64,000 nt of DNA from Candidatus Saccharimonadales bacterium (GCA_038317055.1 JBBQBA010000002.1:266164-330163); one strand, 5' to 3'; numbered from the stretch's first letter, positions 41,860 to 60,118 are shown. Translations and numbers: made by a program. Notes: generated by a model from the letters alone, not told the origin.

Positions 41860-42240
41860 TTATTTTATTCCAAGCGTACTATAAATAACATCTATTACTT
41901 GTGCAGGAGTATGTTGAACTTTTACGATGTATCTATCAACGTTTAATAATCTTAGTGACTGTGAAGCTTCATCCTTACTTACGTTTGTAAGCACTATAAC
42001 TCTTATTCCAGCGCCAAAAATAGTTTGTCTTAATATCCTTAACATTTCATCTCCACTCATCCTTGGCATCTTAAGATCCAAAAGAATTAGGTGAGGTTTA
42101 TTTTTATGAATAACCTTAAGTCCTTCAATTCCATCTGATGCTTCAAACACTTGAAACCCAGACTTATGAAGTTTATATTTGTACATCATTCTAATTGCGT
42201 CATCGTCTTCAATTAAAACTATTTTGATCTGTTCTTGCAA
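41860..42240 (-). CDS. response regulator, receiver domain only
   Basis: It has IEDDD, the phospho-acceptor D in LILLDLKMP, T in VLTN, and the K region. It has a TTG start and no output domain. Confidence 0.85.
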   Translation of the reverse strand: MQEQIKIVLIEDDDAIRMMYKYKLHKSGFQVFEASDGIEGLKVIHKNKPHLILLDLKMPRMSGDEMLRILRQTIFGAGIRVIVLTNVSKDEASQSLRLLNVDRYIVKVQHTPAQVIDVIYSTLGIK

Positions 42241-42387
42241 TTCTTAAACCTTGATTTTCACCTTATATAGCGTTATAATAGTATCATGTAATCCCCTTAG
42301 CGGGCTTGTATATTAGCAGACTAAACAAAACTTAAACATTCTATTTTTTAGATGATTGAGTTTTGTTTTTTTATTTATAAACTAACC

Positions 42388-42416
42388 TTGACAAATGTTG
42401 CTAAATAATGTAGAAT
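42388..42416 (+). promoter_or_regulatory. near-consensus sigma70 promoter (TTGACA-17-TAGAAT)
   Basis: TTGACA lies at 42388-42393 and TAGAAT at 42411-42416. The ATG lies 10 nt downstream, so the leader is very short or absent. Confidence 0.6.
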
Positions 42417-42426
42417 ATGTTTTATT

Positions 42427-43038
42427 ATGACAGAGGCGCTTACACAAGGGTTTACCCCTGATTTAATTGGAGAATTCCAACAAACAGTGCTAGATACTGC
42501 CCATAACGGTGCAAATATCGACTTATTTTTGGAACAAACTGATTTACAAACAGACATCATAACTAGGGAAAACTGGCTAAAGAGACACTCGAAAGCTCTA
42601 GTTGTGGGGTCTGTTGTTGTGGCCGGTGCTTTATCGTTCTCACATTTAAATAAAACATTAGACGCTGTAGGCCACGATGCAAAATGGGCGGGCCCAGCAA
42701 TTGTTGGAACTGAAATTCTGGCGTGGGGTGGCGCTGGGGTAATGCTTGCTTCTGCAGGTTCAAAATTAGGCAATCCTCTTACTGTTAAAAAGCGATTGAG
42801 TCAGATAATTACAGACATGGAGCATAACAAAGTTTTTAATACTGGGGTGTCATTAAATGTGTTAGGTGCTATAGGTACATCAGCGGTAATAATGAGTGGT
42901 GCAATAACTTCAATGCCCTTAAGTAGCTGGCCATTAGCGGTAGAAGCTGCAGGTGCAAGTTTAGCATTATCTTATTTACCAGTTGTTATTTCACAAAATA
43001 GTGGTAATAAGAACGAAAGTACCCAAGGGATAAAATAG
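42427..43038 (+). CDS. polytopic membrane protein (about 4 TM), unknown family
   Basis: A 203-aa ORF with G/A-rich helices. Its stop lies 2 nt before the next start. The antisense ORF 42375..42773 was judged spurious. Confidence 0.6.
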   Translation: MTEALTQGFTPDLIGEFQQTVLDTAHNGANIDLFLEQTDLQTDIITRENWLKRHSKALVVGSVVVAGALSFSHLNKTLDAVGHDAKWAGPAIVGTEILAWGGAGVMLASAGSKLGNPLTVKKRLSQIITDMEHNKVFNTGVSLNVLGAIGTSAVIMSGAITSMPLSSWPLAVEAAGASLALSYLPVVISQNSGNKNESTQGIK

Positions 43039-43040
43039 TT

Positions 43041-43832
43041 ATGTCAATTACTTCACCGATACAAGAATTTGGTCTTGATAATAGTGTTTCTGCAGAAGTA
43101 TTTTCTGGTCACGAAGATGCAGTCTTCTGGCTAGGTCATGTTGCTACCGGAGACAATATTATAGACCAAAATTATTATAATGGTCTGATGCGTTTTCGTG
43201 GGAATGTATACGTAAGAGAATTACACTTTTTAACAGAATCTCAATTGGATAGCAAGGGTAGAGAAATAGATGAAGATGATATAAGATCTGTTGAATTTGT
43301 CGTTTTAGAAAAAGATAAAAGCGAAGATGGCGTTCTAGCTGAAGTCGTAGGTAGTACTAGACTAATAATGAAATCCGACGATAAGAAAAAATTACCAATA
43401 GAACACTATTTTCCTGAAGTATTTACTGACGAGCCGGCCAGTAAAGGTACTGGTGAAGTATCCAGGTTTATTGCTCGTCATCATGATAAAGCAACTCAAA
43501 GCGCTTTATCTCTATCGTTAATAAGGACCGCTGTTTTGTATTCTATGAAAAATGGAATAGACACTCAATACTTCATGATCGAAGAGCCATTAGTTCGTTT
43601 ATTTAATGCAATGCGTATACCACTTGATTTAATGGGAGAATCAAAATACGTACCAGAATATGAAGGAATTCTTTATCCCGCCAGAGTACACCCAAAGGAG
43701 ATATTTGACAAAATTACTTCAATTGAAACTGGAAGTATTGCCCTAAAACTAAAAGCTCATTTCGAAACAGCTGCAAGTGAAACTGGAGAAGGATATTATG
43801 ACGCTTCTTTACAAGGAGTAAGTAATGACTGA
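43041..43832 (+). CDS. LuxI/FeeM-like N-acyl synthase (GNAT-fold acyltransferase)
   Basis: Four motifs appear in the order seen in autoinducer and N-acyl-amino-acid synthases: MRFRGNVYVRE (R..VF), REIDEDD (E-x-D-x-x-D), VGSTRLI and GEVSRFIA (E-x-SRF). Confidence 0.55.
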   Translation: MSITSPIQEFGLDNSVSAEVFSGHEDAVFWLGHVATGDNIIDQNYYNGLMRFRGNVYVRELHFLTESQLDSKGREIDEDDIRSVEFVVLEKDKSEDGVLAEVVGSTRLIMKSDDKKKLPIEHYFPEVFTDEPASKGTGEVSRFIARHHDKATQSALSLSLIRTAVLYSMKNGIDTQYFMIEEPLVRLFNAMRIPLDLMGESKYVPEYEGILYPARVHPKEIFDKITSIETGSIALKLKAHFETAASETGEGYYDASLQGVSND

Positions 43833-44709
43833 TTCAGCTAGATTTGAAAGAAATCTCGGATTTTTATCAGTCGAAGAACAAGCGATTATCCAAGGTTCAA
43901 GTGTGGCAATAGCCGGAGCAGGTGGAGATGGTGGGATGCTTGCAATTCAACTTGCAAGAATGGGCGTGGGTGAACTTAGATTAGCTGATCCAGACCCTTT
44001 TGAAATTGAAAACATTAATAGACAAGCAGTTTGTACTGATCTAACTGTAGGAAAGAATAAGGCTACTGCTGTAGCGGAATTTGTTAAATTAATAAATCCA
44101 GATATATCTACAATAGTTTATGAAGATGGTATAAACATACTTAATGTTGAATCTTTCTTAACAGGTGCTGATTTGCTAATAGATGAAACTGAATTTACAC
44201 TCCATGCATTAGCGGTTTTATTAGCACGAGAAGCAAGAAACCAAAATATACCAAACTTGACAGCAATGAATGTAGGTTTTGGTACTGTAGTAACAACATA
44301 TAAACCTGATGGTCCAAAGCTAGAAAAAAGATTGGGCTTCAAGGAAGATCAAGGAATAATAGAAATAGACGAAGCAGTCGTACCTCTCAGCCGGTGGTTA
44401 CCATATATACCTCCATATGCAGATTTAAAAGTATTTGAAAAAGTGGCAAAAGGCGAAAAATCCGCACCATCAGTTGCTCCGGGGGTTGCGATGGCTGCAG
44501 GAGTAGGGGCTAGTCAAGCAATGTTAAACTTATTGCGAGAAAGCGATAACAAACGAGTGAAACCCACTTATGCACCTCGCGCTATTGTAATAGACGCTAT
44601 GACTATAAAAGCAAGAAAAGTTCGATATAACAGAACATCGCATTACAAATCATTGTCTAGAATGGTTGCACGAAATACTCTTCACTTAAATCCATCAGCA
44701 AGTTATTAG
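43825..44709 (+). CDS. ThiF/MoeB/HesA-family E1-like adenylyltransferase (no CxxC zinc motifs, single Cys)
   Basis: Motifs VAIAGAGGDGGMLA, LADPDPFEIENINRQ, GKNKA and LLIDETE are present. It overlaps the upstream gene by 8 nt. Confidence 0.8.
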   Translation: MTDSARFERNLGFLSVEEQAIIQGSSVAIAGAGGDGGMLAIQLARMGVGELRLADPDPFEIENINRQAVCTDLTVGKNKATAVAEFVKLINPDISTIVYEDGINILNVESFLTGADLLIDETEFTLHALAVLLAREARNQNIPNLTAMNVGFGTVVTTYKPDGPKLEKRLGFKEDQGIIEIDEAVVPLSRWLPYIPPYADLKVFEKVAKGEKSAPSVAPGVAMAAGVGASQAMLNLLRESDNKRVKPTYAPRAIVIDAMTIKARKVRYNRTSHYKSLSRMVARNTLHLNPSASY

Positions 44710-44777
44710 TATAATTACCTTCATAAATTAATCCATTTTATGGTAATTTAACTACTGTTTATGACATAATTAAACTA

Positions 44778-46955
44778 ATGTTTAATGTTTATGCTTTTAT
44801 TACAGTATTCAGTATTACAGTTACTTTAATTTTAAGTTTATTTATTTTCTTAAGAAACCCAAAAGCAAAGTTAAATAGACTGTTCTTTTTGAGTAGTATT
44901 TTGATAGCTGGTTGGTTAGCAACAAATTATCTAGGGAGTACCTTAAGTGTTTCTTATGACATTGCAATTGTTGCAAATAAACTGACTTTCTTTTTAGGAG
45001 CAGCTGGTTCTTTAGCTATATTTTATTTTTCTGCAAATCTAGCGCACAGAAAATCAAATTTTATCAGTAAAGCGCTTACGATTTTCAACGCATATGCACT
45101 ACTATTTTCACTAACACCAGTTGTAGTAAGTTATATTACACCATCTCAAAATACATGGACTATAGGATTCGGAAGTCTTGCTAATTTTTACTTTTTTGTA
45201 CTTTTTGCAAACGTAGTTATGACTTTATTTACTTTACTTTCTGCACACAGAAAATTAACTGGATTTGCAAGATCACAAATTAATTCAGTATTAATAGGAC
45301 TTGCTGGTTTTTTACTTGGTGTGATTATAACTAATGCAGTTCTTCCAATTGCACTTAATTATTACGGCCTAACAAATGCTGGGGCATTATTCTCCTTACT
45401 ACTAACAGGCGGCATGGCGTACGCAATAACTAAACACAAATTATTTGATATCCGCTTAATTATTGCGAGATCGTTAGCCTATGCGACAGCATTAATTACG
45501 ATCGCGCTTTTATATGGTCTGGTTATATTTGCAGCATCAAAATATATTTTTAATTTAGAGATTCCTATATCTGCTCAAATCTTCTTAGCATTGGCTACGG
45601 CTATTGCTGCACTATCTTTCACGAGAATCCAAACATTATTTGATAGACTGACAAATAAGATTTTTTACAGAGATGCTTATAATTCATCGTTATTTTTAGA
45701 TCAATTAAACAAAGTGTTAGTTTCAAATATCGAGATAGAACCTCTTCTTTCGTTAAGTGCTGGTGTAATAAGCTCAAACCTAAAATCTGAATATTGCGCA
45801 TACTATATAGAGGAGTCATCAAATCAAAAAAAATATAAGATAGTTGGAAATAGTGGATTTGATAATACAAGTGGAATATTGAGTTTAATAAATCAACTTG
45901 AAGAATATAAGGATAGAATTGTAGTTTTGGATGAGATAGAATCGGGTAAAGTTAATCTCAGAAATGAGATGTCTAAGAATAATGCTTCAGTTTCGGTTCG
46001 ACTAGATATTAATGAAAGTGGTAAAACAGATAAAATAGGATATTTGATTCTGGGTTCAAGAAAAAGTGGTAATGCATATGTAAACCAAGACATTATTATT
46101 CTAGATATAATCGCAAAAGAACTAGTAATAGCAGTTCAAAATGCACTTAGATTTGAAGAAATTGAGCAATTTAATATTACATTGCAAGAAAAAATTGATG
46201 TTGCAACCTCACAACTAACTAAAGCAAATAAAAGATTAAAGGCACTTGATGAAACAAAAGATGATTTCATAAGCATGGCTTCCCATCAACTTAGAACTCC
46301 TCTATCAGTTATAAAAGGATATGTAAACATGGTAAGCATGGGAGATGCTGGTAAAGTCAACAAACAGCAAAAAGAGTTCTTAGACCAAGCACTAGACGGC
46401 TCAGAAAGTATGGTCAGATTAGTCTCAGAACTTCTTAATGTTTCGAGAATTACATCTGGCAAGTTTAGTATTGAAGCTAGCCCAGTAAACTTGGCAGATC
46501 TCGTAGACGCCCAAGTTAAACAACTAACTAATATGGCAGCTTCAAAAGAAATTACTTTGAACTATCAGAAACCTGAAAACTTCCCATCAATAATGTTAGA
46601 CGAAGATAAGACAAAGCAAGTAATTATAAACTTTATTGATAACGCTATTCATTATTCTAAACCTAAAGGTGCAAAAATTGATATTCAGTTAACAGCCAGT
46701 GACGAAATAATATTCAAAGTTGTCGATAACGGAATTGGAGTACCAAATAGCGAGAAAGATCATTTATTCACTAAGTTCTATCGAGCAAAAAACGCCAAAT
46801 TAGTCAGGCCTGATGGTACAGGTGTAGGTATATATCTAGCCAAAGTAGTAATAAATGAACAGGGTGGTGATCTAATATTTGAAAGTAAAGAGGGTGAGGG
46901 AAGTACTTTTGGATTCAAATTCAAACAGGAAAAAATCACAAAAGAAAAAGCCTAA
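44778..46955 (+). CDS. sensor histidine kinase, N-terminal multi-TM (7TM-type) + GAF-like + HisKA/HATPase
   Basis: It has the H-box FISMASHQLRTPLS, the N-box IDNAIHYS and the G-boxes DNGIGV and GTGVGIYL. Confidence 0.85.
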   Translation: MFNVYAFITVFSITVTLILSLFIFLRNPKAKLNRLFFLSSILIAGWLATNYLGSTLSVSYDIAIVANKLTFFLGAAGSLAIFYFSANLAHRKSNFISKALTIFNAYALLFSLTPVVVSYITPSQNTWTIGFGSLANFYFFVLFANVVMTLFTLLSAHRKLTGFARSQINSVLIGLAGFLLGVIITNAVLPIALNYYGLTNAGALFSLLLTGGMAYAITKHKLFDIRLIIARSLAYATALITIALLYGLVIFAASKYIFNLEIPISAQIFLALATAIAALSFTRIQTLFDRLTNKIFYRDAYNSSLFLDQLNKVLVSNIEIEPLLSLSAGVISSNLKSEYCAYYIEESSNQKKYKIVGNSGFDNTSGILSLINQLEEYKDRIVVLDEIESGKVNLRNEMSKNNASVSVRLDINESGKTDKIGYLILGSRKSGNAYVNQDIIILDIIAKELVIAVQNALRFEEIEQFNITLQEKIDVATSQLTKANKRLKALDETKDDFISMASHQLRTPLSVIKGYVNMVSMGDAGKVNKQQKEFLDQALDGSESMVRLVSELLNVSRITSGKFSIEASPVNLADLVDAQVKQLTNMAASKEITLNYQKPENFPSIMLDEDKTKQVIINFIDNAIHYSKPKGAKIDIQLTASDEIIFKVVDNGIGVPNSEKDHLFTKFYRAKNAKLVRPDGTGVGIYLAKVVINEQGGDLIFESKEGEGSTFGFKFKQEKITKEKA

Positions 46956-47022
46956 TAGAATTATTATTGCCTTAATATTTAAAGTGTTAGAATATAACCA
47001 TATATTTGTAAACAGTTAATGA

Positions 47023-47412
47023 TTGGATTTTCACCGAATGGATAAAACAAAGCGAATACTTGTAGTAGATGATGATGATCAGATAGCTAAAATGTATATT
47101 ACACATTTAGAAATAAAAGGATTCACTACCCACAGAGTAAGTAATGGTGAGGATGCTCTTGCTGCTAGTTTAGATTTTAAACCAGATCTTATTCTTCTTG
47201 ACGTGATGATGCCTAAAATAAGTGGATTTGATGTGCTTGATATTCTTAAAAACACTGATCAAACTAAAAAAATACCCGTAATAATGTTGACTGCATTAAG
47301 TGGAAAAGAAGACATGGATAGAGCGAAAAAACTTGGTGCTGACGAGTACTTAGAAAAATCCACAACTGATCTTCCAATGATTCTTGAAAAAATCAAAGCT
47401 CATATTAGTTAA
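47023..47412 (+). CDS. response regulator, receiver domain only
   Basis: Motifs VVDDDD, LILLDVMMP, MLTA and the K region are present, with no output domain. The TTG start could instead be the ATG at 47038. Confidence 0.85.
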   Translation: MDFHRMDKTKRILVVDDDDQIAKMYITHLEIKGFTTHRVSNGEDALAASLDFKPDLILLDVMMPKISGFDVLDILKNTDQTKKIPVIMLTALSGKEDMDRAKKLGADEYLEKSTTDLPMILEKIKAHIS

Positions 47413-47415
47413 TAA

Positions 47416-47964
47416 TTAAACAAAAACAGGGAAGAGTGAGTAAGTAGTAATTAAACTTGGTTCATCTCTAGTAAAAGTTCTAACCTCACCAGTCGATCTA
47501 GAAAATATAAAACCAAATGGCTTATCACCAGATTCTACATTAATTATTCTTAAGTTAAGTCTACCGTAAGCCCCTGAAACACTTTGACTTTCTATTTGTC
47601 TTTGCCTTGTCGAACTATTACCATAAATCAAAGTTACTTCTTTGTGAGATTTCCGATTCACATCAACCATAATTTGATTTGATTCAAATTCATCATTTGA
47701 TAAATTTGCAATTGTAACTCTATTTGTAGATGTATCTTTTATTATTAATCCACAGAATCTAATAAGTCCATCACAAGCAAATGAATCAATTTCGTAATCA
47801 TTTATATCTGTTTGTTCACCTTCATACAAGATGCCACCAAACCTCGAAGTATCGATTCCAAGTTCTAACGGACTAGGTACAAAAAGATCCGTTGAATCTA
47901 TCGGATCCCAATATTGAACGGACATAACTGGTACTTCTTGGGTTGCTGCGAGACGCTCCGACAT
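47416..47964 (-). CDS. hypothetical protein
   Basis: A 182-aa ORF between the two paralogous kinases. I recognise no family. Confidence 0.5.
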   Translation of the reverse strand: MSERLAATQEVPVMSVQYWDPIDSTDLFVPSPLELGIDTSRFGGILYEGEQTDINDYEIDSFACDGLIRFCGLIIKDTSTNRVTIANLSNDEFESNQIMVDVNRKSHKEVTLIYGNSSTRQRQIESQSVSGAYGRLNLRIINVESGDKPFGFIFSRSTGEVRTFTRDEPSLITTYSLFPVFV

Positions 47965-48128
47965 ATTGCTAATACTATAACATTGAAAGTGCTTATTTAA
48001 ATCTACAAAAAGCTAATATAAAATGATTGTTAATTACATGACTTAAGCGGTATAATTTAAGGAGTTAACATCAATAACAAAAACAATGAAAGTTAACCCT
48101 AATCAAAAAAATATAAAGTAGGTAATTT

Positions 48129-50279
48129 GTGATTTCCGTTTACAATAACGTATCAAGTATAGCCACCATTGTTGGCCTTATTGTTATTCTTACTTTAGTT
48201 GCTGCGAAAAACTATCGTAGCAAAATTAATCAGGTCTTTTTGGTTTTTGGTTTTGTTGTGTTGGCTTACGTTACTGTAGGTTACATTTCTAATTTCCCAA
48301 GCTCATACTCCGGCGCATTACTGTTTTCTCGAATATCACTTTTGGCAGCAAATTATATTCCAGTAGCATTTTTAGCTTTTACTTATGCTTTTATAGGTAG
48401 AAAAAAAATCCTTAATGTATCAATGGCAATGCTTATAGTTTCTGCGATGATTCTTGGTGTGTTGGCGTTTTCTCCGCTTGCAATCGGCGGAATTACTCGT
48501 GGGACTAACGGTGTTACAACTACTAATACCGGCCCTCTTCTTTGGTTAACGTTAATCAATTTTATATTTGTAACTTCATATAGTTTTACACTTTTAATAA
48601 GATACGCAAAAAGAAGCGATCAGTTAGTTCGTTCTCAAGTAAATATAATAGTCTATAGCTCTTCTTTGGTCATTATTCTAAACATGATTACACAAATAAT
48701 ACTTCCTGAATTTCACTATACTACTCTGGGAAATATTGTCGGTACTCCATCTATTCTCTTATTTGTTGGTGGTATGGGATATGTAATCCTTAAACACAAA
48801 CTATTCGATATAAAATCAGTAGCTCTGCGAAGCATGGGCTTTGTTGCGACACTTTTGATCGTTATGATCACTTTCAGTATTATCATGCTTGTTCCTACTA
48901 AAATACTTTTCTCACATTTGTCTTTAAATACCCTAGAAAATCTTTACTTTATTACGGCTGCAATTATTTTAGCTTTATTATTTAATCCTCTTAAAGCTTT
49001 ACTTAAAAAGCTAACTGATAAATTATACTTTCAAGTAAGTTATAACTCCGAACAACTAGTTAATGAGATAAGTAAGATTTTAGCTTCAGAAATCCGACTT
49101 GAAGAAATGAGTAGGCAAGTTATAGCTGTCTTAACTAAGAAAATGAATATAAAAGAAATTGACATTGTGGTTCTGGATAAAGGAAAGATTTATTTTGAAT
49201 CAGGTGAATACTTTAGTTCTGTAATTGATAAGTTTCAAAATGACCTTGAATCCATCAGTGATAATATTGTAGTCACTGAAGATTTGGATCCTGGCCAAGA
49301 AAAAACTATTCTGGAGACCTATAAAATACAAGTTGCCGCACAAATGAAAGTAAATAATGAAAAAGTAGGCTATATTTTATTTAGTAATCGAAACCGTGGA
49401 CTACCGTATGTAAAGAAAGATGTTCTGTTAACTAATATAATTGCAGATGAGCTTGCGATTGCCATCCAAAATAGTCGTGCCTATGATCAAATTCGACAGT
49501 TTAATGCCAGTCTACAAAGAAAGGTAGAAGAATCAACTACACAGCTCCTTATAGCAAATGATGACCTAAAAAAAGCTAGTGCAACTAAAGATGACTTTAT
49601 CTCAATGGTATCTCATCAACTTGGTACACCGCTAACAGTTATGGAAGGCTTCTTATCATTAATAACTCAGGGCTTTTATGCTAAAGATAGTGATAAAGCT
49701 AATGAAGCACTTAAAAAAGCATTATCTAGAACCCGAGTAATGAAAAACCTCGTATTTGATTTACTAAATTTAAGTAGGATGTCAGCAGGAAAGTTTTTCC
49801 TTGAAATTTCATCAGTTGATTTAAACGAAACTGTTAAGGACGAAGTAAGTCAACTGGAGATGGAAGCAAAAGACAAAAATGTAACGCTAACTTATCATCA
49901 GCCACAAACGCCAGTACCTGCTATTCAATTAGATGAAGCTAAGACTAGACAGGCGATTATGAATTTAGTTAATAATGCGATTTTTTATTCTTCAGGTGGT
50001 AAAGTCGATGTCTATCTGAGTTCTGATCAAAATAATGTGATATTCAAAGTTGTGGATAATGGAATCGGCGTACCAGAAAATCAAAAAGAACACTTGTTTA
50101 CTAAATTCTTTAGAGCAGATAATGCAATTAGAGAAAGCCCAAACGGAACTGGAATTGGACTTTATCTAGTTAAGAGAGTTGTTGAAGACCAACACGGTCA
50201 AATTATATTCTCTAGTAAACTAAAAGAAGGTTCAACTTTCGGTTTTAATCTACCGATTATGACTCAACTACAAACCTAA
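48129..50279 (+). CDS. sensor histidine kinase, paralogue of 44778..46955
   Basis: It has the same architecture. Shared strings include KHKLFDI, FKVVDNGIGVP and LFTKF.R. It has a GTG start. Confidence 0.85.
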   Translation: MISVYNNVSSIATIVGLIVILTLVAAKNYRSKINQVFLVFGFVVLAYVTVGYISNFPSSYSGALLFSRISLLAANYIPVAFLAFTYAFIGRKKILNVSMAMLIVSAMILGVLAFSPLAIGGITRGTNGVTTTNTGPLLWLTLINFIFVTSYSFTLLIRYAKRSDQLVRSQVNIIVYSSSLVIILNMITQIILPEFHYTTLGNIVGTPSILLFVGGMGYVILKHKLFDIKSVALRSMGFVATLLIVMITFSIIMLVPTKILFSHLSLNTLENLYFITAAIILALLFNPLKALLKKLTDKLYFQVSYNSEQLVNEISKILASEIRLEEMSRQVIAVLTKKMNIKEIDIVVLDKGKIYFESGEYFSSVIDKFQNDLESISDNIVVTEDLDPGQEKTILETYKIQVAAQMKVNNEKVGYILFSNRNRGLPYVKKDVLLTNIIADELAIAIQNSRAYDQIRQFNASLQRKVEESTTQLLIANDDLKKASATKDDFISMVSHQLGTPLTVMEGFLSLITQGFYAKDSDKANEALKKALSRTRVMKNLVFDLLNLSRMSAGKFFLEISSVDLNETVKDEVSQLEMEAKDKNVTLTYHQPQTPVPAIQLDEAKTRQAIMNLVNNAIFYSSGGKVDVYLSSDQNNVIFKVVDNGIGVPENQKEHLFTKFFRADNAIRESPNGTGIGLYLVKRVVEDQHGQIIFSSKLKEGSTFGFNLPIMTQLQT

Positions 50280-51415: not shown

Positions 51416-51433
51416 AATAAATATATTTTCTTA

Positions 51434-51682
51434 TTAAACCGTGAGTCGTTTTAAATCCGATACATACTTATTAATTAGTGGCTCATCGTCTGTTAGTAGT
51501 GACATGGCAATCTTAATCCAGATTATTAAATCTTTAAGATCTTTTTTAGTCAATCGTTCGGGTGCCTTACCGATGTGACTTTTAATTTGTCGGGTTACAA
51601 AACGATCGGCTGCTGGACCAAGATATTCATAGGTAATATCAACTACCTCCAAATACAGTGATACAGTCCGCTTAGTCATCAT
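51434..51682 (-). CDS. hypothetical small protein
   Basis: An 82-aa ORF that overlaps the upstream membrane gene by 4 nt (ATGA). Confidence 0.5.
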   Translation of the reverse strand: MMTKRTVSLYLEVVDITYEYLGPAADRFVTRQIKSHIGKAPERLTKKDLKDLIIWIKIAMSLLTDDEPLINKYVSDLKRLTV

Positions 51683-52581
51683 ACTTCTTCAATCTTCTTT
51701 AGATTTTTAACTCCAAGGACAATTAATATATAACAAGCGGCAATCATTATTAATAATAAGTATACGACCACAAGAATCCAATCAAGGGACAGTTTTGAAA
51801 GCCGCTCAGACACTGTAGTTAAATACTGAAGAATGATTGAATACACAATCAATGAGCCAAGACCATAGGCAAGTAAAGTCCAATATTTTCGATAAATAAT
51901 TCCTTTAACTTTTTGTCGATAAATATAAATTTCATAAAAAGAAAGAATGCCGCTAAACCACATAAAAATATAAGGTGCAACTAGAGTTAACATAATTAAA
52001 ATTATAGGCATATGGTAAGGTCCCGTGAGCCTATTTGGAGTAGTAGAAACTAAATATCCATAAAATACACCAATAAATATAATCAGGGCAGCCAACATAT
52101 TTGTGCTACGAAGTGTAGGTCTTTGTTTTGTAATTTCACTTAGTTGTCTCGCGCCTATTCCAATAAAAACAAAACCGATGAACGGTAGAAATAAACTCAG
52201 ATAGTTTTGAGTAATAAGTACCGAAGTTGAAAGGTGACTGTAGTGTTCGACAAGTAAGTTTGTGTAGATATTGAAGTTCGCAGTTATTGGAAACCATACA
52301 GCTAAAAATCCAATTCCAATTGCAATTTTAGAAAGAGGCTTGCCGTCCTTATTTTCTTTAATAAGTCTTGAATAATGACTTATATGATAAAAGCCATAAA
52401 AAGCACATGCCCATATAATGGCAAATAAAATAATTATAGTCAGATCTACCAATCTAAGGTGCGCTAAAGTAATATGGTATTTTTGAAGAGTTCCTTTAGG
52501 TGGTGGAATTAGTAGTGTGCCAAGGGCGTATAAAATAACGAATAAAAAATAACCATACAAGACCTTTAGCTTATTGCTCAT
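51679..52581 (-). CDS. polytopic membrane protein (about 8 TM), possible detached sensor module
   Basis: A hydrophobic 300-aa ORF, first in an operon with the 82-aa ORF and the soluble PAS kinase. Confidence 0.6.
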   Translation of the reverse strand: MSNKLKVLYGYFLFVILYALGTLLIPPPKGTLQKYHITLAHLRLVDLTIIILFAIIWACAFYGFYHISHYSRLIKENKDGKPLSKIAIGIGFLAVWFPITANFNIYTNLLVEHYSHLSTSVLITQNYLSLFLPFIGFVFIGIGARQLSEITKQRPTLRSTNMLAALIIFIGVFYGYLVSTTPNRLTGPYHMPIILIMLTLVAPYIFMWFSGILSFYEIYIYRQKVKGIIYRKYWTLLAYGLGSLIVYSIILQYLTTVSERLSKLSLDWILVVVYLLLIMIAACYILIVLGVKNLKKIEEV

Positions 52582-52636
52582 AAATCAAACTCCATATTTT
52601 TACATATTAGGATTATACATAATATGAGTTTATATT

Positions 52637-52658
52637 TTAGAAATTAAATAATTTCTAA
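52637..52658. promoter_or_regulatory. perfect 22-bp palindrome TTAGAAATT-AAAT-AATTTCTAA (candidate operator)
   Basis: The arms are 9 bp, perfect, with a 4-bp spacer. It lies 56-77 nt upstream of the 51679..52581 start. Confidence 0.3.
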
Positions 52659-52913
52659 TTTATTGTAGATTTTTCCCGAAAAATAAGTTCAGGATATCTT
52701 AATGATTTTCTATTCAAAAAAGAATCTATTTTTGATAATAGTTCTTTTTCGCTAAGTATTGTTTTTCCCATAGTACCCCCGTCAGCTATGATAGTACCTT
52801 GAATTTGAAATAAGATTTATTGAATAAATCACAAATAAAAAGTTATAATTCTAACATTATAATTTACTAAATAGGGTTTATAATTTTCCTAAGACGGAGT
52901 AAATATATAATTT

Positions 52914-53294
52914 ATGGACAAAGCACTGAAGGATATAAATGTACTGGTTGTAGAGGATGAAAAAGACTTAAATGAAGCCTATGTTGCTATACTTAAATCT
53001 CAAAAAATAAAAGTAGAATCTAGTTTTAACGGTAAGGAAGCACTTGAATGTCTAAAGAAATTTAAGCCTGATATTATTTTACTCGACTTAAGAATGCCAA
53101 CCATGGGTGGAATAGAGTTTTTGACCAAAATAAATAAATTAAAACCAAAGTTAAAATCAAAAATAATAATTTTTAGTAATTACGACAAACAAGATGAGAT
53201 AAAAGATGCCTTCGATCTTGGGGCTTCTAAGTACATGCTAAAAGCTTGGGCGTCCCCAAATGAACTTATCAAAGTAATTAAAGAAACTGTTTAA
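52914..53294 (+). CDS. response regulator, receiver domain only
   Basis: Motifs VVEDEKD, IILLDLRMP, FSN and K are present, with no output domain. Confidence 0.85.
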   Translation: MDKALKDINVLVVEDEKDLNEAYVAILKSQKIKVESSFNGKEALECLKKFKPDIILLDLRMPTMGGIEFLTKINKLKPKLKSKIIIFSNYDKQDEIKDAFDLGASKYMLKAWASPNELIKVIKETV

Positions 53295-53299
53295 TTTTT

Positions 53300-53989
53300 T
53301 TACCGAATTTTTAATGAATCAAACTCTTCACTACCAAGTGAACTTATCAGAACCGGTAAATTAACGGTATATATTCCACCTTTATACTGAAGAGCCCCGC
53401 GCTTTTTTAACTTAATCGCTTCAATAGTTACTGACTCTCTAGTAATTCCAACTAAACTGGCGATTTGAGAATGAGTTAACTTAAATGGCATTTTATATAC
53501 GTCGCTCTTATTTCGATCAACTATTCCGAATCTCAAAACTAAGTAGTGCATTATCTTAATTATTTTATCTTGTGAGTGGGAATGTTCTAGTGCGTGAATA
53601 TGTACTGTCGAGCCAATGAAGCTATTTGCAAATTGATTAAGTAACTTGTTTGAAAGTAGATGGTCTTTATCTATACTTTCTCTAAACTCTTCACGGTTAA
53701 TTGCAGTAACAATGCAATCTGTAAAAGCACGATAATAGTAAAGTGATACAGGTGATCTGCTAAAAACCCATTCTACCGGTATTACGTCACCGACCGTGTA
53801 AAAAGCAATAATTTGTTCGTCTCCGCTATTACTTATAGTATATGAAATTACAAATCCAGATTTTATGACAAGCGCTAAGGGAGGAACTTCACCTTGAAAT
53901 AATATAATGTTTTTATTCTTATATTTTCTTAAAATAGTAGACCTAAAGTTACTAGTAAAATCATTATGATTACCCCGTGATTCCAACAT
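53300..53989 (-). CDS. Crp/Fnr family transcriptional regulator
   Basis: It has a cNMP-binding-like beta-roll and the C-terminal HTH LTHSQIASLVGITRESVT. Confidence 0.8.
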   Translation of the reverse strand: MLESRGNHNDFTSNFRSTILRKYKNKNIILFQGEVPPLALVIKSGFVISYTISNSGDEQIIAFYTVGDVIPVEWVFSRSPVSLYYYRAFTDCIVTAINREEFRESIDKDHLLSNKLLNQFANSFIGSTVHIHALEHSHSQDKIIKIMHYLVLRFGIVDRNKSDVYKMPFKLTHSQIASLVGITRESVTIEAIKLKKRGALQYKGGIYTVNLPVLISSLGSEEFDSLKIR

Positions 53990-54037
53990 GATCCTATTAT
54001 GACATAACTCTTTTATGATCGTGAAACCATACGCGTG

Positions 54038-54402: not shown

Positions 54403-54870
54403 TTAATTACTCAGATTATTAGACATTGCTTCTAGATCCTCTTCTGAAGCTTTAGGTCCATCAATTGAGGTTACGTAACCTTGGTATTTTTCATGAAATT
54501 CTGGTTTACCAGATAAAATTGGTTTCCAAGTATTTAAATCAGCTGTTCCATGTAGCGGATATAATTTGGCATGAACATGGTCAATCTCAAAACCTTCAAA
54601 AATTAGTGCCGTTCTATTTGAATCATCAATTTTTGCATCTAGCTGTAGACCAACTTTACGAACTATATCTAAAAAATCATGATAAACAGCGTCAGGTAAC
54701 TCAAAAACGTAACTTGAGTAATGCTTTTTAGGTATTACGACCGTAGCTCCTGGAGTGTTTGGAAATAAAGTCAAAAAAGCCAAATATGAATCGTCTTCGT
54801 AAATCTTATGACTAGGCATCTCACCGGCAACTATTTTACAAAATAAACAGTCCATATTAATCACTTCCAT
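54403..54870 (-). CDS. HIT family protein
   Basis: It has the CLFCKI start and the histidine-triad region IDHVHAKLYP. Confidence 0.8.
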   Translation of the reverse strand: MEVINMDCLFCKIVAGEMPSHKIYEDDSYLAFLTLFPNTPGATVVIPKKHYSSYVFELPDAVYHDFLDIVRKVGLQLDAKIDDSNRTALIFEGFEIDHVHAKLYPLHGTADLNTWKPILSGKPEFHEKYQGYVTSIDGPKASEEDLEAMSNNLSN

Positions 54871-55528: not shown

Positions 55529-55602
55529 TATCCTTACATCATAGCAAATACAGATTTATATCAATAATTGACAAATGTTCATATATATAGTTATATATTG
55601 AG

Positions 55603-56148
55603 ATGACACAGCAAGATAACCCTGAAAAATCAATTGGTTTATTACCACACGAAGCAGCATTTGTACTGGCTAATTATGATAAATCGGAATTCGAAAGAAT
55701 TGCCGCACGTGAGCTTTATGTAGAAGGAATCACTGCTCACGAAAGTAAAGAAATGAAGTATACAACAACTGGTGTTACGGCTTTCGAATCCAGAAGAATG
55801 GATCGAAAACAGCAAATACTTGGTGGACTGAGTTTAGTTATTCGATACCACGATCAGACTCCATATCCCGATGAAAAGTTAAGCATCGCAACCTATGGTA
55901 GTCGTGTAACAGTTAATGGTGGAGACTGGGTGCAAATTTTTGATATTGCAACTCATGACATACCCGGTATGCCTGAACCTGAAGATGTAACTATAGTTTC
56001 TGCAACTTCAGCTGTCGGCTCAGCTCTAATTAATAGCAAAGCCGGACATTCTGTAACTTGGGAACTTGATGATGGGACAAGTACTACCGTAGAAATAGTA
56101 CAAATTGATCAACAAGCTCAAGCAGCTAATTATTTGCAGGTGTTATAG
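55603..56148 (+). CDS. protein with a GreA/GreB C-terminal-like domain
   Basis: The C-terminus SATSAVGSALINSKAGHSVTWELDDGTSTTVEIVQI resembles the Gre C-terminal domain. The N-terminal 120 aa are unassigned. Confidence 0.5.
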   Translation: MTQQDNPEKSIGLLPHEAAFVLANYDKSEFERIAARELYVEGITAHESKEMKYTTTGVTAFESRRMDRKQQILGGLSLVIRYHDQTPYPDEKLSIATYGSRVTVNGGDWVQIFDIATHDIPGMPEPEDVTIVSATSAVGSALINSKAGHSVTWELDDGTSTTVEIVQIDQQAQAANYLQVL

Positions 56149-57406
56149 GTAGTTGTTGATTACAGCTTGATATATTTGGCTGACCTGCAAACCTATCACC
56201 AATCCAGGTTATAACTTGTGGTGCAATAGTTGAGGATAATTGAATATGACCTACGTCGGCTAACCATAGTGAACTAAGATTTGATCCTGCTCGACAGGCA
56301 GTCTGAATATATAATGCAGTAGTATTAGGGAGTACTACTTTATCGTTTAGACTTTCCGCAACAAGTAGTGGCTGGTCTTTAGTTAAAATTGGAGCAGTTT
56401 CAGATTTAGCAGCCCCTAACCAACTAGTAGAGCTAGATATATTTTCTTTGAAAAAGTCCTGTTTAAGACTTATTCGAACTAGTCCTCCGAGGGCGGCAGT
56501 ACTAATACATTGATTAGCTATTTTTTTATAATTATTAAAACCGGCTGAAGTAGTAATTGAACTTGGGTCTAAATTATTGTACTGAGTTGGCCATGATACA
56601 AGAACTTCTGGACCGATTACCCAGTCAAGGGTTGTTCCATATGTTTCATTAAGTAGTGGTACTAACTCAGCAGCAGGAGCAGATGCCACTGTACCCACTA
56701 AATGTAATTCGGGTGCATATATACTTGTTTGACTAGCACTAAACAGGGCAGAATGTCCACCTTGTGAATGGCCCCATATGGCAAAAGTATTACCAGCTTG
56801 AGCGGAGGTTATGAACTTTAGCGCTCTAACACTGTTTAAGACGTCTCTCGATTCATCCCCACCTATTAAATAACCTTCAGTTCCGGGTGTACCTAGACCT
56901 GCATAATCGGTAGCTGTTACTACCCAGCCCCGTGCTAACATTTCACTCACCCAGGCAATACTTGAAGTTGGATTAGTAGTTCGGGAAGGCGCACAAGCGT
57001 CTCCCATACCGACAGTCCCATGCGCCCATGCAACAACTGGTCTTGGAAAACCAGAAGCAGAATTATTAGGTACAAAAACCATTCCGGATGCAAAAGTAAT
57101 GCTTCCATTAGACCGTTGTGTCCTATAAATTATTCGCTCGGCCGTACCATTATCTACCTTTATACCTAACGGTTCTGATCTTAATACTTCTCCAAGTGGG
57201 CCAGCCGTACTGAGGTCCGAAGTATTATAAAAGGGCTGGAGTGCATTTTGTTTATGTGCAGTTTTAATTTTTGATATTGCACCAATGAGAATAAAGAACA
57301 GTATGACTGCAATAATAATAATGAATAACGTTACAAGTAGATGTTTTAGATGATGATGACGTTTTAGGAAATGTCTTTTTTTAAGTTTAGTTTTATTTTT
57401 CTTCAT
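56126..57406 (-). CDS. secreted lipase (LIP/secretory-lipase-like alpha/beta hydrolase)
   Basis: It has an N-terminal TM anchor and the nucleophile elbow WGHSQGGH. Confidence 0.7.
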   Translation of the reverse strand: MKKNKTKLKKRHFLKRHHHLKHLLVTLFIIIIAVILFFILIGAISKIKTAHKQNALQPFYNTSDLSTAGPLGEVLRSEPLGIKVDNGTAERIIYRTQRSNGSITFASGMVFVPNNSASGFPRPVVAWAHGTVGMGDACAPSRTTNPTSSIAWVSEMLARGWVVTATDYAGLGTPGTEGYLIGGDESRDVLNSVRALKFITSAQAGNTFAIWGHSQGGHSALFSASQTSIYAPELHLVGTVASAPAAELVPLLNETYGTTLDWVIGPEVLVSWPTQYNNLDPSSITTSAGFNNYKKIANQCISTAALGGLVRISLKQDFFKENISSSTSWLGAAKSETAPILTKDQPLLVAESLNDKVVLPNTTALYIQTACRAGSNLSSLWLADVGHIQLSSTIAPQVITWIGDRFAGQPNISSCNQQLPITPANN

Positions 57407-57410
57407 AATA

Positions 57411-57791
57411 TTAATCTTCTAAAGAGGCAATTATAACCGGCAGATTTTCTGGTAGTATATCAGCTTTAATTACATATCCGTCGGCGCCACTTGCAATTGC
57501 AGTTTCAGTAATAGTCTGCAAGGCTAAATTTGTTAAAACAATTATTTTAGTATCGATACAACCTAGCGCAGTATTAGTTCGTAGTTCTTTTAGTATGTCT
57601 AGGCCAGATGAACCAGGTAGCATTACATCTAAAAGAACACAGTCCGGATGATAAGACTCCAGTTTCTTATACAGTTCTATCGAGCTACCCGCAACCTCAA
57701 CCCTAAAATCTTTATTAACAAGGACGCTGCGATATAAATCACGAATCATTACATCATCTTCAACTAGGAGTACGTTTTTTAAACCAGCCAT
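57411..57791 (-). CDS. response regulator, receiver domain only
   Basis: Motifs VEDD, VLLDVMLP, VLTN and K are present. It overlaps the upstream kinase by 32 nt. Confidence 0.85.
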   Translation of the reverse strand: MAGLKNVLLVEDDVMIRDLYRSVLVNKDFRVEVAGSSIELYKKLESYHPDCVLLDVMLPGSSGLDILKELRTNTALGCIDTKIIVLTNLALQTITETAIASGADGYVIKADILPENLPVIIASLED

Positions 57792-60051
57792 GGATACCTC
57801 CCGATTCTTTTTCTTTAGACACTAATTTATCGTGTAATTCTGGTACATAAATAGGTAGATCAAAATAGAAGACTGAGCCTTTACCGGTATAAGGTTCTAG
57901 TCCAATCTTTCCGTGATGTAGGTCAATAATAGTTTTAGATATATATAGACCTAGTCCTGTTCCACGGTTACCAGCAACAAGACTTCTCTCAACTCGATAA
58001 AACTTGGTAAATAATTTGTTACGAGCATCTGTGGCTATTCCTGGTCCTTCGTCACTTACCTCAACTCGAGCTTGAGTTTTACTAGCAATAACTTTTACAC
58101 GAATGTTTCCACCCTCAGGTGTGTATTTCATTGCATTACCAATTAGGTTATTGAGTACTTCAGTGAGGGACGATATATCGCCAGGAACATATACATAATC
58201 TTCTACATTACAGGTATATATAATGTGTTGTCCCCTAATTAATGCAGTTGGTTCGTGATGACTCGATACTTCTTTAACTAGTTGAGCTAGATCTAATTTT
58301 TCGATATGAATATCCATCTCACCACGTTCAATTCTAGATATATTAAGTAGTTTGTTGATCAAATCGCGAAGTTGATCAGTACCAACAATCGCTTTTTGAA
58401 GATTTTCAATATTGTGGATAGTTAACTGATTTAGGGCTTCGTATTTAAGTAGGCTTAAGTAGCCCTGTACGACAGTTACTGGTGTTCTTAACTCATGGGC
58501 AGCTATAGCAACAAAGTCTAGTTTCATAACATCTAATTCACGACTCTGTGTTTGATCGTGAATAGTTAGAATTGCTGCTATATCACTATCTTTTCGGTCA
58601 ATTACTGTAACCATCACATCTAAGTATGAAATCTCATTACCTCGATATAATGTCAGGTCATTATATTGATATTGACCTGGCTTTATCAGTTCTATTATTA
58701 GTTGTTTTCCTTCATGAAGGAAAGGGTAGTAGTCAGTAATAGTTTTACCCTTAAGGTCAATTGGTATATTGTTAATTAATCTTGCAGCTGGTGGATTAAT
58801 AGAAATAATTTCACCCATGTCATTCAAAGCCACAATTCCATCTGACACACTACTAATTATGCTATTTAACTTAGTCTGTTCTACAACGAGGTTTTGGTTC
58901 TTGTTCTTTAAGTCTCCAACTAGATTCTTTATATTCAGACCCATACTATTAAATGTGTTGGCAAGCTCCTGAAGCTCATCGTTACTCTTAACTACAATTG
59001 TTTGATCATAATCCCCATGTTCTATACTTTTAACCCCAAACATCAATTTGTTAATTGGGTTTATAAGTTGTTTCCTAAATATAAGACTCATGAGTATAGA
59101 GAATATGACTGCACCAATGAAGATAATTTCAGATAATTTAAGGAATGAATTTATTCCCGCGAAAATACTAGATACCGGCTCTTCTACAATAACTGCCCAG
59201 TTAGTCCGAGTCAGTTTACGTGGTGTACTTATAACATTCTTACCAATTTCAGAAACGGTCTGTCGAGTTCCAGTTTGACCAGTTATAAATTCGTTAACAG
59301 CTTGGACAGTAGATATTTTTTGGTGAGATATTAAGTACTTATTATTCGGATGTGCAACTAAGTTACCTAGACCATCTACAACATAAGCATATCCTCCGTT
59401 ACCTATTTTAGTTGATAGTACTGATTGCCAAAGTCCACTAATGTCATAGTTAGCAACTATCACGCCCTGAATATCGCTAGGATCAGTATATTTACCGAAG
59501 TTAGCTGATTGTAGGTTATTATAATTTTGACTTAGGTTAGTTTTTAGTACTGGTACAGCTATAGTAATTTGCGGATTTCCTTCGCTATCATAACTTACTG
59601 AACTTATGTAATTTTTTCCACCAAGAAAACCAATAGCCTTGAATGCATCACTGCTTGCTTGATTAGTAAGATTTTGAACTTGGCCCTGTTGAGTAAATGC
59701 GTTTTCTTCAATTCCTGAAGCATTTAAATATGCGACTTTTTGAACGGTAGGATCTTCTTTTACAAGTACTGCAAGATTAGGAGAAGTACCAGAAGTGTTA
59801 AGATTTCTAACGGCGAATACACCAGCCTGAAAGGATAATGCACTGGTTTTATTAGCCAGATAGTTATCCACATTTGATGCAGTATCATCGGCTACTATTT
59901 GTTGTCTTGTTTCGGCTGCATTCAATAGTAGAGATTTTGCTGAACTTACAAGTACAATATTAACTAAGAATAGAGGTATTAAAGAAACAATCAAAAAGAA
60001 GATCAGCAACTTCGTTGATATGGTTAGTCTAAATTTTTTTATTTTCTCCAT
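57760..60051 (-). CDS. sensor histidine kinase with an extracellular Cache-like domain, HAMP and PAS
   Basis: It has two TM segments flanking a ~270-aa ectodomain, a HAMP domain (NDELQELANTFN), the H-box AIAAHELRTPVT and an HATPase domain (DEGPGI, GTGLGLYI). Confidence 0.85.
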   Translation of the reverse strand: MEKIKKFRLTISTKLLIFFLIVSLIPLFLVNIVLVSSAKSLLLNAAETRQQIVADDTASNVDNYLANKTSALSFQAGVFAVRNLNTSGTSPNLAVLVKEDPTVQKVAYLNASGIEENAFTQQGQVQNLTNQASSDAFKAIGFLGGKNYISSVSYDSEGNPQITIAVPVLKTNLSQNYNNLQSANFGKYTDPSDIQGVIVANYDISGLWQSVLSTKIGNGGYAYVVDGLGNLVAHPNNKYLISHQKISTVQAVNEFITGQTGTRQTVSEIGKNVISTPRKLTRTNWAVIVEEPVSSIFAGINSFLKLSEIIFIGAVIFSILMSLIFRKQLINPINKLMFGVKSIEHGDYDQTIVVKSNDELQELANTFNSMGLNIKNLVGDLKNKNQNLVVEQTKLNSIISSVSDGIVALNDMGEIISINPPAARLINNIPIDLKGKTITDYYPFLHEGKQLIIELIKPGQYQYNDLTLYRGNEISYLDVMVTVIDRKDSDIAAILTIHDQTQSRELDVMKLDFVAIAAHELRTPVTVVQGYLSLLKYEALNQLTIHNIENLQKAIVGTDQLRDLINKLLNISRIERGEMDIHIEKLDLAQLVKEVSSHHEPTALIRGQHIIYTCNVEDYVYVPGDISSLTEVLNNLIGNAMKYTPEGGNIRVKVIASKTQARVEVSDEGPGIATDARNKLFTKFYRVERSLVAGNRGTGLGLYISKTIIDLHHGKIGLEPYTGKGSVFYFDLPIYVPELHDKLVSKEKESGGIHGWFKKRTPS

Positions 60052-60111: not shown

Positions 60112-60118
60112 AATGCTA

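Follow-up and report, generated by a model that had tools for sequence, protein, structure and literature searches.

Four histidine kinases and four stand-alone receivers in a Saccharibacteria gene region: a lineage-typical two-component set that probably acts through protein-protein contacts

Here we describe a two-component signaling region in a stretch of 64,000 nucleotides from Candidatus Saccharimonadales bacterium (GCA_038317055.1, JBBQBA010000002.1:266164-330163). We refer to the whole stretch as the window and count all positions from its first letter. The region spans positions 41860-60051 and contains four sensor histidine kinases (HK1 to HK4) and four response regulators that consist of a receiver (REC) domain alone (REC1 to REC4). 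We made hidden Markov models (HMMs) of the receivers and of the kinase cores and searched a six-frame translation of the whole 64 kb with them, and about 60 open reading frames (ORFs) of at least 100 amino acids (aa) across the window were scanned for protein domains. The receiver HMMs gave exactly four matches in the 64 kb and the kinase-core HMMs exactly four, with no further ones. All eight genes reported in a preliminary description of this DNA are confirmed at the positions given there.

Pfam finds Response_reg and nothing else in each of the four receivers: REC1 (126 aa; 41860-42240, minus strand; 7e-19), REC2 (129 aa; 47023-47412, plus strand; 2.5e-23), REC3 (126 aa; 52914-53294, plus strand; 2.7e-25), and REC4 (126 aa; 57411-57791, minus strand; 2.8e-20). 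For REC2 there are two alternative starts, a TTG at 47023 that yields 129 aa and an ATG at 47038, the start in the public gene call, that yields 124 aa. These results bear out the earlier statement that the regulators lack an effector domain and place REC1-4 among the single-domain response regulators (the CheY/Spo0F/DivK class). Trans_reg_C, which marks the OmpR/PhoB family, was not found by Pfam in any of the four, and a tblastn search with an OmpR-type regulator of this lineage matched only in its receiver part. The acidic pair, the phospho-acceptor Asp, the Thr/Ser, the switch Tyr, and the Lys are all kept in REC1-4. As a comparison, the single-domain share among response regulators in Pfam is about 23 %, according to the portion of Gao et al. 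(2019) quoted in PMC8995066. With this Pfam-wide share, four stand-alone receivers out of four would be improbable by chance (p ~0.003 if they are independent).

One explanation for such short regulators is that they are truncated remnants of full-length proteins, and the preliminary description had named truncation by assembly errors as something that would undo its reading. Some database evidence leans this way: pipelines of the Joint Genome Institute (JGI) label many homologs 'DNA-binding response OmpR family regulator', and the profiles that fit the receivers best are those of PhoB-, RpaB-, and MtrA-type receivers. However, an independent assembly (the Logan assembly of run SRR19962015) contains the same genes with the same lengths, and hundreds of orthologs are of like length (103-159 aa). 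The best 120 homologs of REC1 are all stand-alone receivers of 120-159 aa (54-76 % identity), as are the best 120 of REC2 (103-154 aa, 54-86 % identity), and the nearest single-domain relatives of REC3 (44-56 % identity) all have 122-134 aa. The REC3 search, made in a library of 1.84 billion representatives, was usable only for these few single-domain matches and for a control set used below, because multi-receiver hybrid proteins, whose scores add up, swamped it. The 500-bp gap 3' of REC1 contains no decayed second receiver, murD, or effector remnant. An AlphaFold2 model of REC1 (mean pLDDT 93) shows the full (beta-alpha)5 fold, in which all five strands and all five helices are present. Its superposition on RR468, Spo0F, and DivK gives TM-scores of 0.86-0.93, and the range becomes 0.8-0.93 when the PhoP and RpaA receivers are included. 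With a complete fold, intact catalytic residues, no remnants, and an agreeing second assembly, the data refute truncation or decay, to which we give virtually no credence. The gap itself lies where a second receiver and murD are found in other genomes, and an unannotated ORF of ~74 aa (~41589-41813, minus strand) is present within it.

The four kinases differ in their sensory parts and share a HisKA-class core (Pfam HisKA 1e-13 to 1e-17 and HATPase_c 1e-22 to 1e-27), with the H-box and the N, G1, F, and G2 boxes visible in an alignment of HK1-4. HK1 (725 aa; 44778-46955, plus strand) is a multi-pass 7TM-type HisKA kinase with the H-box SHQLRTPL. HK2 (716 aa; 48129-50279, plus strand) has a HisKA_7TM sensor (1.2e-12) ahead of HisKA and HATPase_c. 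HK3 (379 aa; 50276-51415, minus strand) is a soluble kinase with PAS, HisKA, and HATPase_c domains, and its gene is convergent with that of HK2 with a 4-nt overlap. HK4 (763 aa; 57760-60051, minus strand) combines dCache_1 (43.6 bits, slightly below the cut-off of 45), HAMP, a weak PAS, HisKA, and HATPase_c, and has the canonical H-box AHELRTPV. Hydropathy gives HK1 and HK2 about 7-9 membrane segments within the first 280 residues, gives HK4 two transmembrane segments that flank the Cache domain, and gives HK3 none. HK1 has 1135 homologs at E<=1e-10, many of which carry HisKA_7TM, and the best non-self match is 49 % identical. Where the homologs of HK1, REC1, and REC2 are named, they come from Saccharibacteria, Saccharimonadales, or Patescibacteria.

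The H-box of three of the four kinases departs from the usual form. HisKA kinases typically have an acidic residue, Glu or Asp, directly after the phospho-His, although this is not strictly defining. HK1 (residue 503), HK2 (496), and HK3 (151) have Gln at this site in the motif S-H-Q-L-R/G-T-P-L, whereas HK4 keeps H-E, and the Gln is invariant among 25 members of the HK1 family. The acidic residue beside the phospho-His is generally held to aid autophosphorylation and phosphatase activity, and for this reason the H-Q kinases may have unusual kinetics. In the related loci introduced below, H-Q occurs in 80 of 86 kinases; we rejected this as a lineage-wide trait, since ASHQLRTPL was itself a retrieval pattern.

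To place the region in its lineage, we compared it with 80 GTDB loci (1.25 Mb in all; designated by L numbers where they must be told apart), nearly all from Saccharibacteria, Saccharimonadales, or Patescibacteria. These were retrieved via an alignment of the HK1 family, using H-box peptide patterns of that family. All 84 receiver proteins, 80 from the related loci and 4 from the window, match Response_reg in Pfam, and 76 of the 80 from related loci are stand-alone receivers, compared with the single-domain share of about 23 % in Pfam as a whole. Trans_reg_C occurs in only two, both OmpR-type (L002:13515-14192 and L076:14739-15428), and both adjoin kinases of another type. The remaining exceptions are one REC-REC protein and one with a 570-aa tail that has no match; no other output domain was found in the 84. 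Among the 86 kinases of the related loci there is no hybrid kinase. The preliminary description had presented the region as a sensory island; that it is anything special is not supported, for stand-alone receivers and the clustering of kinase and receiver genes turn out to be usual in loci of Saccharibacteria and of the Candidate Phyla Radiation (CPR). The components are of standard kinds, HisKA kinases and single-domain regulators, and the locus is ordinary for its lineage.

The stand-alone receivers also share a sequence signature. In 79 of 84 the residue after the conserved Thr/Ser is Asn, and in 73 of 84 the conserved Lys has Ala or Ser behind it where Pro is usual (consensus Y-x-V-K-A-x-x-T-P). 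The two OmpR-type proteins carry Gly/Val and Pro at these positions. As a control we used 409 receiver domains of multi-domain proteins, in which Asn is found in 17 % and Pro in 51 %. The combination of Thr-Asn and Lys-non-Pro was rejected as a unique mark because the control domains share it in part (17 % and ~49 %); it is a strong enrichment. Several records labeled Nevskiaceae, Gammaproteobacteria, or Sulfotelmatobacter (L002, L042, L052, L053, L060) have gene content and synteny like those of Saccharibacteria or other CPR bacteria, and the same mismatch between a non-CPR label and CPR-type gene content is seen in L068, L070, L071, L074, and P0084. These are probably mis-binned or mislabeled metagenome-assembled genomes.

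According to published surveys, two-component systems are scarce in CPR bacteria, at about five per genome, and kinase frequencies are lowest there (PMC7137472, PMC10805038). This 18-kb stretch probably holds most of the two-component set of the organism, and we consider it probable that the region is the main two-component complement of a Saccharibacteria genome, built in the way typical of the lineage.

If the receivers carry no output, the phosphoryl group could pass onward in a phosphorelay, in which they would be Spo0F-like intermediates that feed an Hpt or Spo0B-like protein and then a terminal DNA-binding regulator encoded elsewhere. Spo0F of the Bacillus sporulation phosphorelay is likewise a stand-alone receiver, and no protein of solved structure matches REC1 better in sequence (3e-15); tandem receivers are common in the related loci, and OmpR-type regulators do exist in some of them (L002 and L076). 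However, the similarity of REC1 to Spo0F ends before the alpha4-beta5-alpha5 face, and the folds of RR468, DivK, and PhoP match equally well. Spo0F needs Spo0B and Spo0A, and nothing comparable was found among the scanned window ORFs, which contain no Hpt or Spo0B-like domain over the 64 kb. The lack of hybrid kinases in the related loci and the position of both OmpR-type regulators beside kinases of a different type also count against a relay, which we regard as unlikely.

The gene order around HK1 is conserved. A stand-alone receiver gene lies divergently and at most 5 kb upstream of an HK1-type kinase, as REC1 does here, in 15 of the 21 loci with enough flank, and a further divergent REC1-HK1 case was found by BLAST in L007. 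REC1-type genes often occur as a tandem REC-REC followed by murD, or near folD. On the other side, REC2 begins 67 nt 3' of HK1, and REC2-type genes (61-68 % identity) directly follow HK1-type kinases (44-45 % to HK1) in L082, L086, and L087; in L084 a REC2-type gene stands back to back with a REC1-type gene. Because both gene orders are conserved across loci, HK1 probably serves both REC1 and REC2.

That one kinase goes with two or three receivers is the rule (HK1-REC1-REC2 here, and HK-REC-REC(-REC) operons in related loci). This arrangement is compatible with receivers that mainly act back on the kinases, either through DivK-like allostery or by competing for phosphate as a sink, with the net effect of shaping the signaling and not of contacting downstream machines; DivK is among the best fold matches. 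A sink, however, requires that some other branch be productive, and no branch that carries an output domain was seen. In addition, the REC1 and REC2 families are very highly conserved (up to 76-86 %), more so than their kinases (40-49 %), which suggests constraint by partners other than the kinase. We therefore consider feedback or a phosphate sink quite unlikely as the main role of the receivers.

A second conserved unit consists of HK4 and REC4, whose genes share 32 nt, the last of HK4 being the first of REC4. This overlapping arrangement is kept in two metagenome loci, L091 (62 %/66 % identity) and L092 (55 %/65 %). HK2, HK3, and REC3 have no conserved adjacent partner in the related loci and are orphans.

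The only DNA-binding protein of the region, as the preliminary description had stated and the Pfam scan bears out, is a Crp/Fnr-family transcription factor (53300-53989, minus strand; cNMP_binding and HTH_Crp_2). Its gene is convergent with REC3, the end of which is 5 nt away, so a receiver could in principle team up in trans with this protein, or with a stand-alone winged helix, as a split regulator. Crp-family genes also lie ~4-7 kb from a kinase in L061 and L082 (4 kb in the latter), and stand-alone receiver genes of Thaumarchaeota sometimes adjoin helix-turn-helix genes (PMC5847659). By contrast, the Crp neighborhood is not conserved, with one weak match to the REC3-Crp adjacency in 80 loci, and the two genes, being convergent, are not co-transcribed. 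A search of the window and the loci for a stand-alone winged helix of the OmpR type, with a weak HMM built from two sequences, found none. Crp-type sites (TGTGA-N6-TCACA) were not found, and none like TTGAT-N4-ATCAA (FNR-type) lies within promoters of the region. A split regulator is thus very improbable, and a local Crp/Fnr regulon, which we also considered, finds no support, since the palindromes do not lie in promoters of the region.

The related loci also offer candidate protein targets, inferred from the gene neighborhoods in relatives. The most telling neighbor is pilB (T2SSE plus MshEN), the gene for the type IV pilus motor, which six loci of several CPR phyla contain. A stand-alone receiver gene directly precedes pilB, in the same orientation, in five of them, and in the remaining locus it lies at a distance of one gene. 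Most often the genes are ordered HK-REC-REC-PilB, with more same-strand genes behind them, and three of the loci have pilin genes. REC1-type genes precede murD in related loci. As a separate observation, REC2-type orphans (59-62 %; gene at 6001-6400) in L088, L089, and L090 end a string of ftsE, ftsX, a CHAP hydrolase gene, ctpA (a PDZ/S41 protease), and pyrG.

This pilus link could also be taken to mean that the receivers are orphan CheY proteins of a Che- or Chp-type pathway encoded elsewhere, an outcome that the preliminary description had said would overturn its account, and some sources name the homologs 'CheY-like chemotaxis protein'. In the window as in the related loci, however, the kinases beside the receivers are all of the HisKA class, and the scanned window ORFs contain no domain of CheA, CheW, or a methyl-accepting chemotaxis protein. 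Patescibacteria are reported to lack chemotaxis genes (PMC7137472), which also weighs against this idea. The challenge from chemotaxis therefore fails, and we consider such a pathway extremely improbable.

Together, these data support the idea that the phosphorylated receivers act by protein-protein control and not by DNA binding, to which we give a probability of about 0.6. The receivers are intact and have no output domain, no DNA-binding partner is conserved, receiver genes adjoin pilB in relatives, the alpha4-beta5-alpha5 face of REC1 is strongly conserved, and there are precedents. The preliminary description had listed protein-protein control, or control of pili, among several options, and it is this option that the comparative data favor.

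The precedents come from bacteria and archaea. In Xanthomonas, DrdR has no output domain and yet binds PilB and PilT and stimulates them (PMC13507683). PilG/PilH and DrdR are thus output-less receivers that control type IV pilus motors by contact; the differences are that PilG/PilH are fed by a CheA-type kinase and DrdR is an orphan with tandem receivers, whereas here the kinases are of the HisKA class and the window has no pilB. In archaea, stand-alone receivers make up ~40-75 % of regulators and DNA-binding regulators are near absent, and protein-protein output is the accepted inference (Galperin et al., 2018, PMC5847659). REC-PAS/GAF combinations and cytoplasmic sensors abound in the archaeal sets, whereas the sensors here are mostly membrane-bound and the receivers belong to one sequence family. 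DivK with DivJ/PleC of Caulobacter is also a single-domain receiver with HisKA kinases that works through protein contacts and has links to the cell cycle and envelope. It is a good fold match for REC1, but the identity is 23-25 %, there is no orthology, and its partners DivL and CckA are not present here.

Another of the closest known systems is HK853-RR468 of Thermotoga maritima (PDB 3DGE and related entries), in which a HisKA kinase is likewise encoded with a stand-alone receiver of ~122 aa. RR468 is among the best fold matches (TM-score 0.90-0.93, 30-34 % identity) and sequence matches of REC1. HK853 has a canonical H-E H-box, and RR468 has Thr-Ala and Lys-Pro; unlike this pair, HK1-3 carry H-Q and REC1-4 carry Thr/Ser-Asn and Lys-Ala/Ser/Val. 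To our knowledge no output has been assigned to RR468 either.

If the receivers do work by contact, signaling in this organism might run as follows. The HisKA-class sensor kinases would phosphorylate the stand-alone receivers. HK1, with its 7TM sensor, would serve the divergent REC1 and the downstream REC2, and it is probably co-transcribed with the genes for a membrane protein with two transmembrane segments, a FeeM-like acyltransferase, and a ThiF-like enzyme. HK4, with its predicted extracellular dCache sensor, would serve REC4 through translationally coupled genes. The orphans HK2 (7TM), HK3 (cytoplasmic PAS), and REC3 would probably cross-connect within the set. The phosphorylated receivers would then bind and modulate other proteins via a conserved alpha4-beta5-alpha5 face. 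This face is the partner-binding surface of receivers, and residues 85-113 of REC1, which form it, are the most conserved stretch of the REC1 family. Candidate targets, which would be encoded outside the region, are the PilB motor ATPase and envelope or division functions (murD; ftsEX-CHAP hydrolase-ctpA-pyrG).

Several points weigh against control by protein contacts. No target was identified in the window, which has no pilB, and its one pilin-like gene (2833-3378) is ~39 kb off. REC2, REC3, and REC4 are just 30-41 % identical to the PilB-adjacent receivers, which is not orthology. The links to murD, folD, and ftsEX may just reflect conserved housekeeping gene order in small genomes, and the pairings of kinases with receivers rest on gene order and conserved synteny alone. 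OmpR-type regulators do occur in the lineage, as in L002 and L076, and genes for DNA-binding regulators or for an Hpt protein may lie elsewhere in the genome, beyond this part of a 333-kb contig. Finally, the census sampled receivers near a kinase family that was retrieved by pattern, and only seven of its kinases lack the patterns.

The preliminary description had also suggested that the kinases arose by local paralogous expansion, and this is not borne out. HK1 and HK2 are 33 % identical over their full length. When catalytic cores are compared, 39 foreign kinases are closer to HK1 than HK2 is, which ranks 40th, and the number of foreign kinases nearer than the closest paralog in the window is 42 for HK3 and 15 for HK4. 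For the HK2 core, HK1 (50 %) is about as close as the best foreign match (52 %); the best relatives of HK2 are in L036 and L045. The HK3 core is nearest (43-45 %) to far longer CPR kinases, and one of the five best, in L070, lies in a pilus gene cluster. The receivers give the same picture, with a mutual identity of 28-33 % among REC1-4 compared with up to 76 % (REC1) or 86 % (REC2) to orthologs elsewhere. By these core and receiver identities the paralogs are old, and on the sequence comparison HK2 is an old paralog of HK1. All eight proteins are members of old families, with orthologs throughout Saccharibacteria.

The argument for expansion had been a string, LFTKF(Y/F)R, said to be unusual and common to all four kinases. 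The string is indeed common to all four, but it is the ordinary F box that lies between G1 and G2 of HATPase_c, in a form widely shared by these kinases. Its L, F, K, F, and R do not vary among 25 members of the HK1 family, and the Lys variant occurs in 62 of the 71 related-locus kinases in which the motif could be scored. The shared string marks the kinase family and not a duplication.

Three genes are packed between REC1 and HK1 on the plus strand. The first gene of the putative HK1-REC2 operon (42427-43038) encodes a 203-aa protein with two predicted transmembrane segments, which has no Pfam or NCBIfam match and shows weak similarity to the gene upstream of the HK1 ortholog in L082. The second (43041-43832) encodes a GNAT-fold acyltransferase that is FeeM-like (Pfam FeeM 27.6 bits, cut-off 27); it gives 18 bits with Autoind_synth (cut-off 24; 2e-3) and 60 bits with TIGR03694 (cut-off 112). 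It resembles the N-acyl amino acid synthase FeeM, autoinducer synthases, and the PEP-CTERM-associated acyltransferase, and no relative was found by sequence in the PDB. Relatives of this acyltransferase lie directly upstream of HK1-type kinases in six loci (L003, L004, L022, L038, L055, and L078). The third gene (43825-44709), which overlaps the second by 8 nt and ends 68 nt before HK1, encodes a ThiF-family (E1-like) adenylating enzyme (Pfam ThiF 5.6e-32) with PDB relatives that include ThiF, TcdA, PaaA, and MccB. In six related loci a ThiF-like gene ends close to a downstream kinase gene, from a 6-nt overlap to a 47-nt gap, whereas in a seventh the two are 857 nt apart. Among the promoter-like sites of the region, the one at 42388-42416, ahead of the gene at 42427, has the highest score (11/12). 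The scan of the region for promoters and terminators gave no enrichment over shuffles (68 found vs 80 expected; 7 vs 9), and only this site stands out, which is suggestive.

The slot upstream of HK1-type kinases and co-directional with them is genome-specific and mostly holds small-molecule enzymes. The tally is six ThiF-like enzymes, six S-adenosylmethionine (SAM) methyltransferases, four GNAT/FeeM-like proteins, one of which matches Autoind_synth with 2e-10, and three AdoMet decarboxylases, along with an AMP-binding enzyme, an Orn/Arg decarboxylase, and an aminotransferase (L003, L004, L005, L007, L008, L016, L022, L038, L052, L055, L066, and L078). The slot could be a variable signal-synthesis cassette beside a conserved receptor kinase. 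In LuxM/LuxN, and in the pairing of a TIGR03694 acyltransferase with PrsK, an acyltransferase of the LuxI/FeeM fold likewise stands upstream of a multi-pass kinase. Unlike in those pairs, the acyltransferase in the window scores at or below family cut-offs and the upstream gene varies among genomes (ThiF-like, methyltransferase, decarboxylase, and others). The resemblance to a signal synthase with its receptor kinase lies in gene order alone, that is, in the two-transmembrane, FeeM-like, and ThiF-like genes packed before HK1-REC2. Fifteen loci (L006, L016, L018-L024, L026, L028, L030, L043, L049 at 10901-11185, and L069) share a conserved small protein of ~75-90 aa, the gene for which directly follows the HK1-type kinase gene and is convergent with it. 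The N-terminus of this protein is very basic (MAKQKKKRNKKY...), and its C-terminus is a membrane anchor. Pfam gives no match for it, and it was not found in the window.

Other genes lie among or beside the kinases and receivers. Divergent from HK4 is the gene for a Ser/Thr/Pro-rich protein with a single transmembrane segment at residues 110-128 (60083-60982, plus strand). Its homologs (44-47 % identity) occupy the same divergent position in L091 (4615-5589) and L092 (1981-2631), and it could be an accessory or a target of the HK4-REC4 system. Located 4 nt 3' of REC4 on the same strand is the gene for a secretory-lipase-family protein with an N-terminal transmembrane or signal segment (56126-57406, minus strand; Pfam LIP 8e-25). 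The lipase gene is not kept beside the HK4-REC4 orthologs in L091 and L092, and in L051 LIP-like genes precede an HK-REC-REC-REC operon. Between REC2 and HK2 lies the gene for a soluble protein of 182 aa (47416-47964, minus strand), with no Pfam or NCBIfam match; neither this protein nor the 203-aa protein upstream of HK1 has homologs in the 80 loci, even with an iterated HMM. A 300-aa membrane protein with eight predicted transmembrane segments (51679-52581, minus strand) has no family match, and weak homologs are encoded near kinases in L045 and L075.

The products of the other scanned ORFs are glycoside hydrolases, glycosyltransferases, sortases, two WhiB-like proteins, an MMPL transporter, and housekeeping proteins, and no further regulator domain was found among them. 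GH5 and GH26 glycoside hydrolases (5839-7245 and 11921-13096), several glycosyltransferases, and three sortases (14962-15777, 16246-16899, and 33757-34419) form a cell-surface and polysaccharide block upstream of the signaling region. The two WhiB-like genes are adjacent (24015-24629 and 24637-24999). WhiB-like iron-sulfur transcription factors are typical of Actinobacteria, the hosts of cultivated Saccharibacteria. Near the end of the window, a 210-aa ORF (62854-63486, minus strand) has a Logan counterpart annotated EndoU_bacteria (a toxin nuclease). The G+C content of the window is 31-41 %; the core of the signaling region (44000-54000) has 31-33 % compared with 35-41 % across most flanks. 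Scans of the window for tRNA and Rfam families gave no match.

Saccharibacteria are ultra-small and host-dependent, live attached to host bacteria, and rely on type IV pili to move and to bind the host. What controls the extension and retraction of pili in Patescibacteria has been stated to be an open question (PMC11623550). In a search of the literature on CPR biology we found no paper that discusses two-component architecture in Saccharibacteria or other CPR bacteria, and the lineage-wide pattern of stand-alone receivers appears not to have been described so far. If nearly all regulators of these minimal cells are bare receivers, the cells would respond mainly post-translationally, as has been argued for archaea. 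A bolder extension, to which we give a small but real chance, is that CPR two-component signaling runs nearly entirely through one family of output-less receivers (with Thr/Ser-Asn and Lys-Ala/Ser) and H-Q HisKA kinases, that it acts directly on PilB and on wall and division machines instead of on promoters, and that HK1-type kinases are quorum-like receptors for a signal made by the upstream enzymes. Because Saccharibacteria are now genetically tractable (PMC10633639), the prediction of control by protein contacts can be tested. The interest of the region lies in this testability and in the lineage-wide pattern, and not in the locus being exceptional. If nearly all regulators are indeed bare receivers, the few conserved families, such as the REC1-type and REC2-type ones, would be direct handles on host sensing, motility, and envelope growth.

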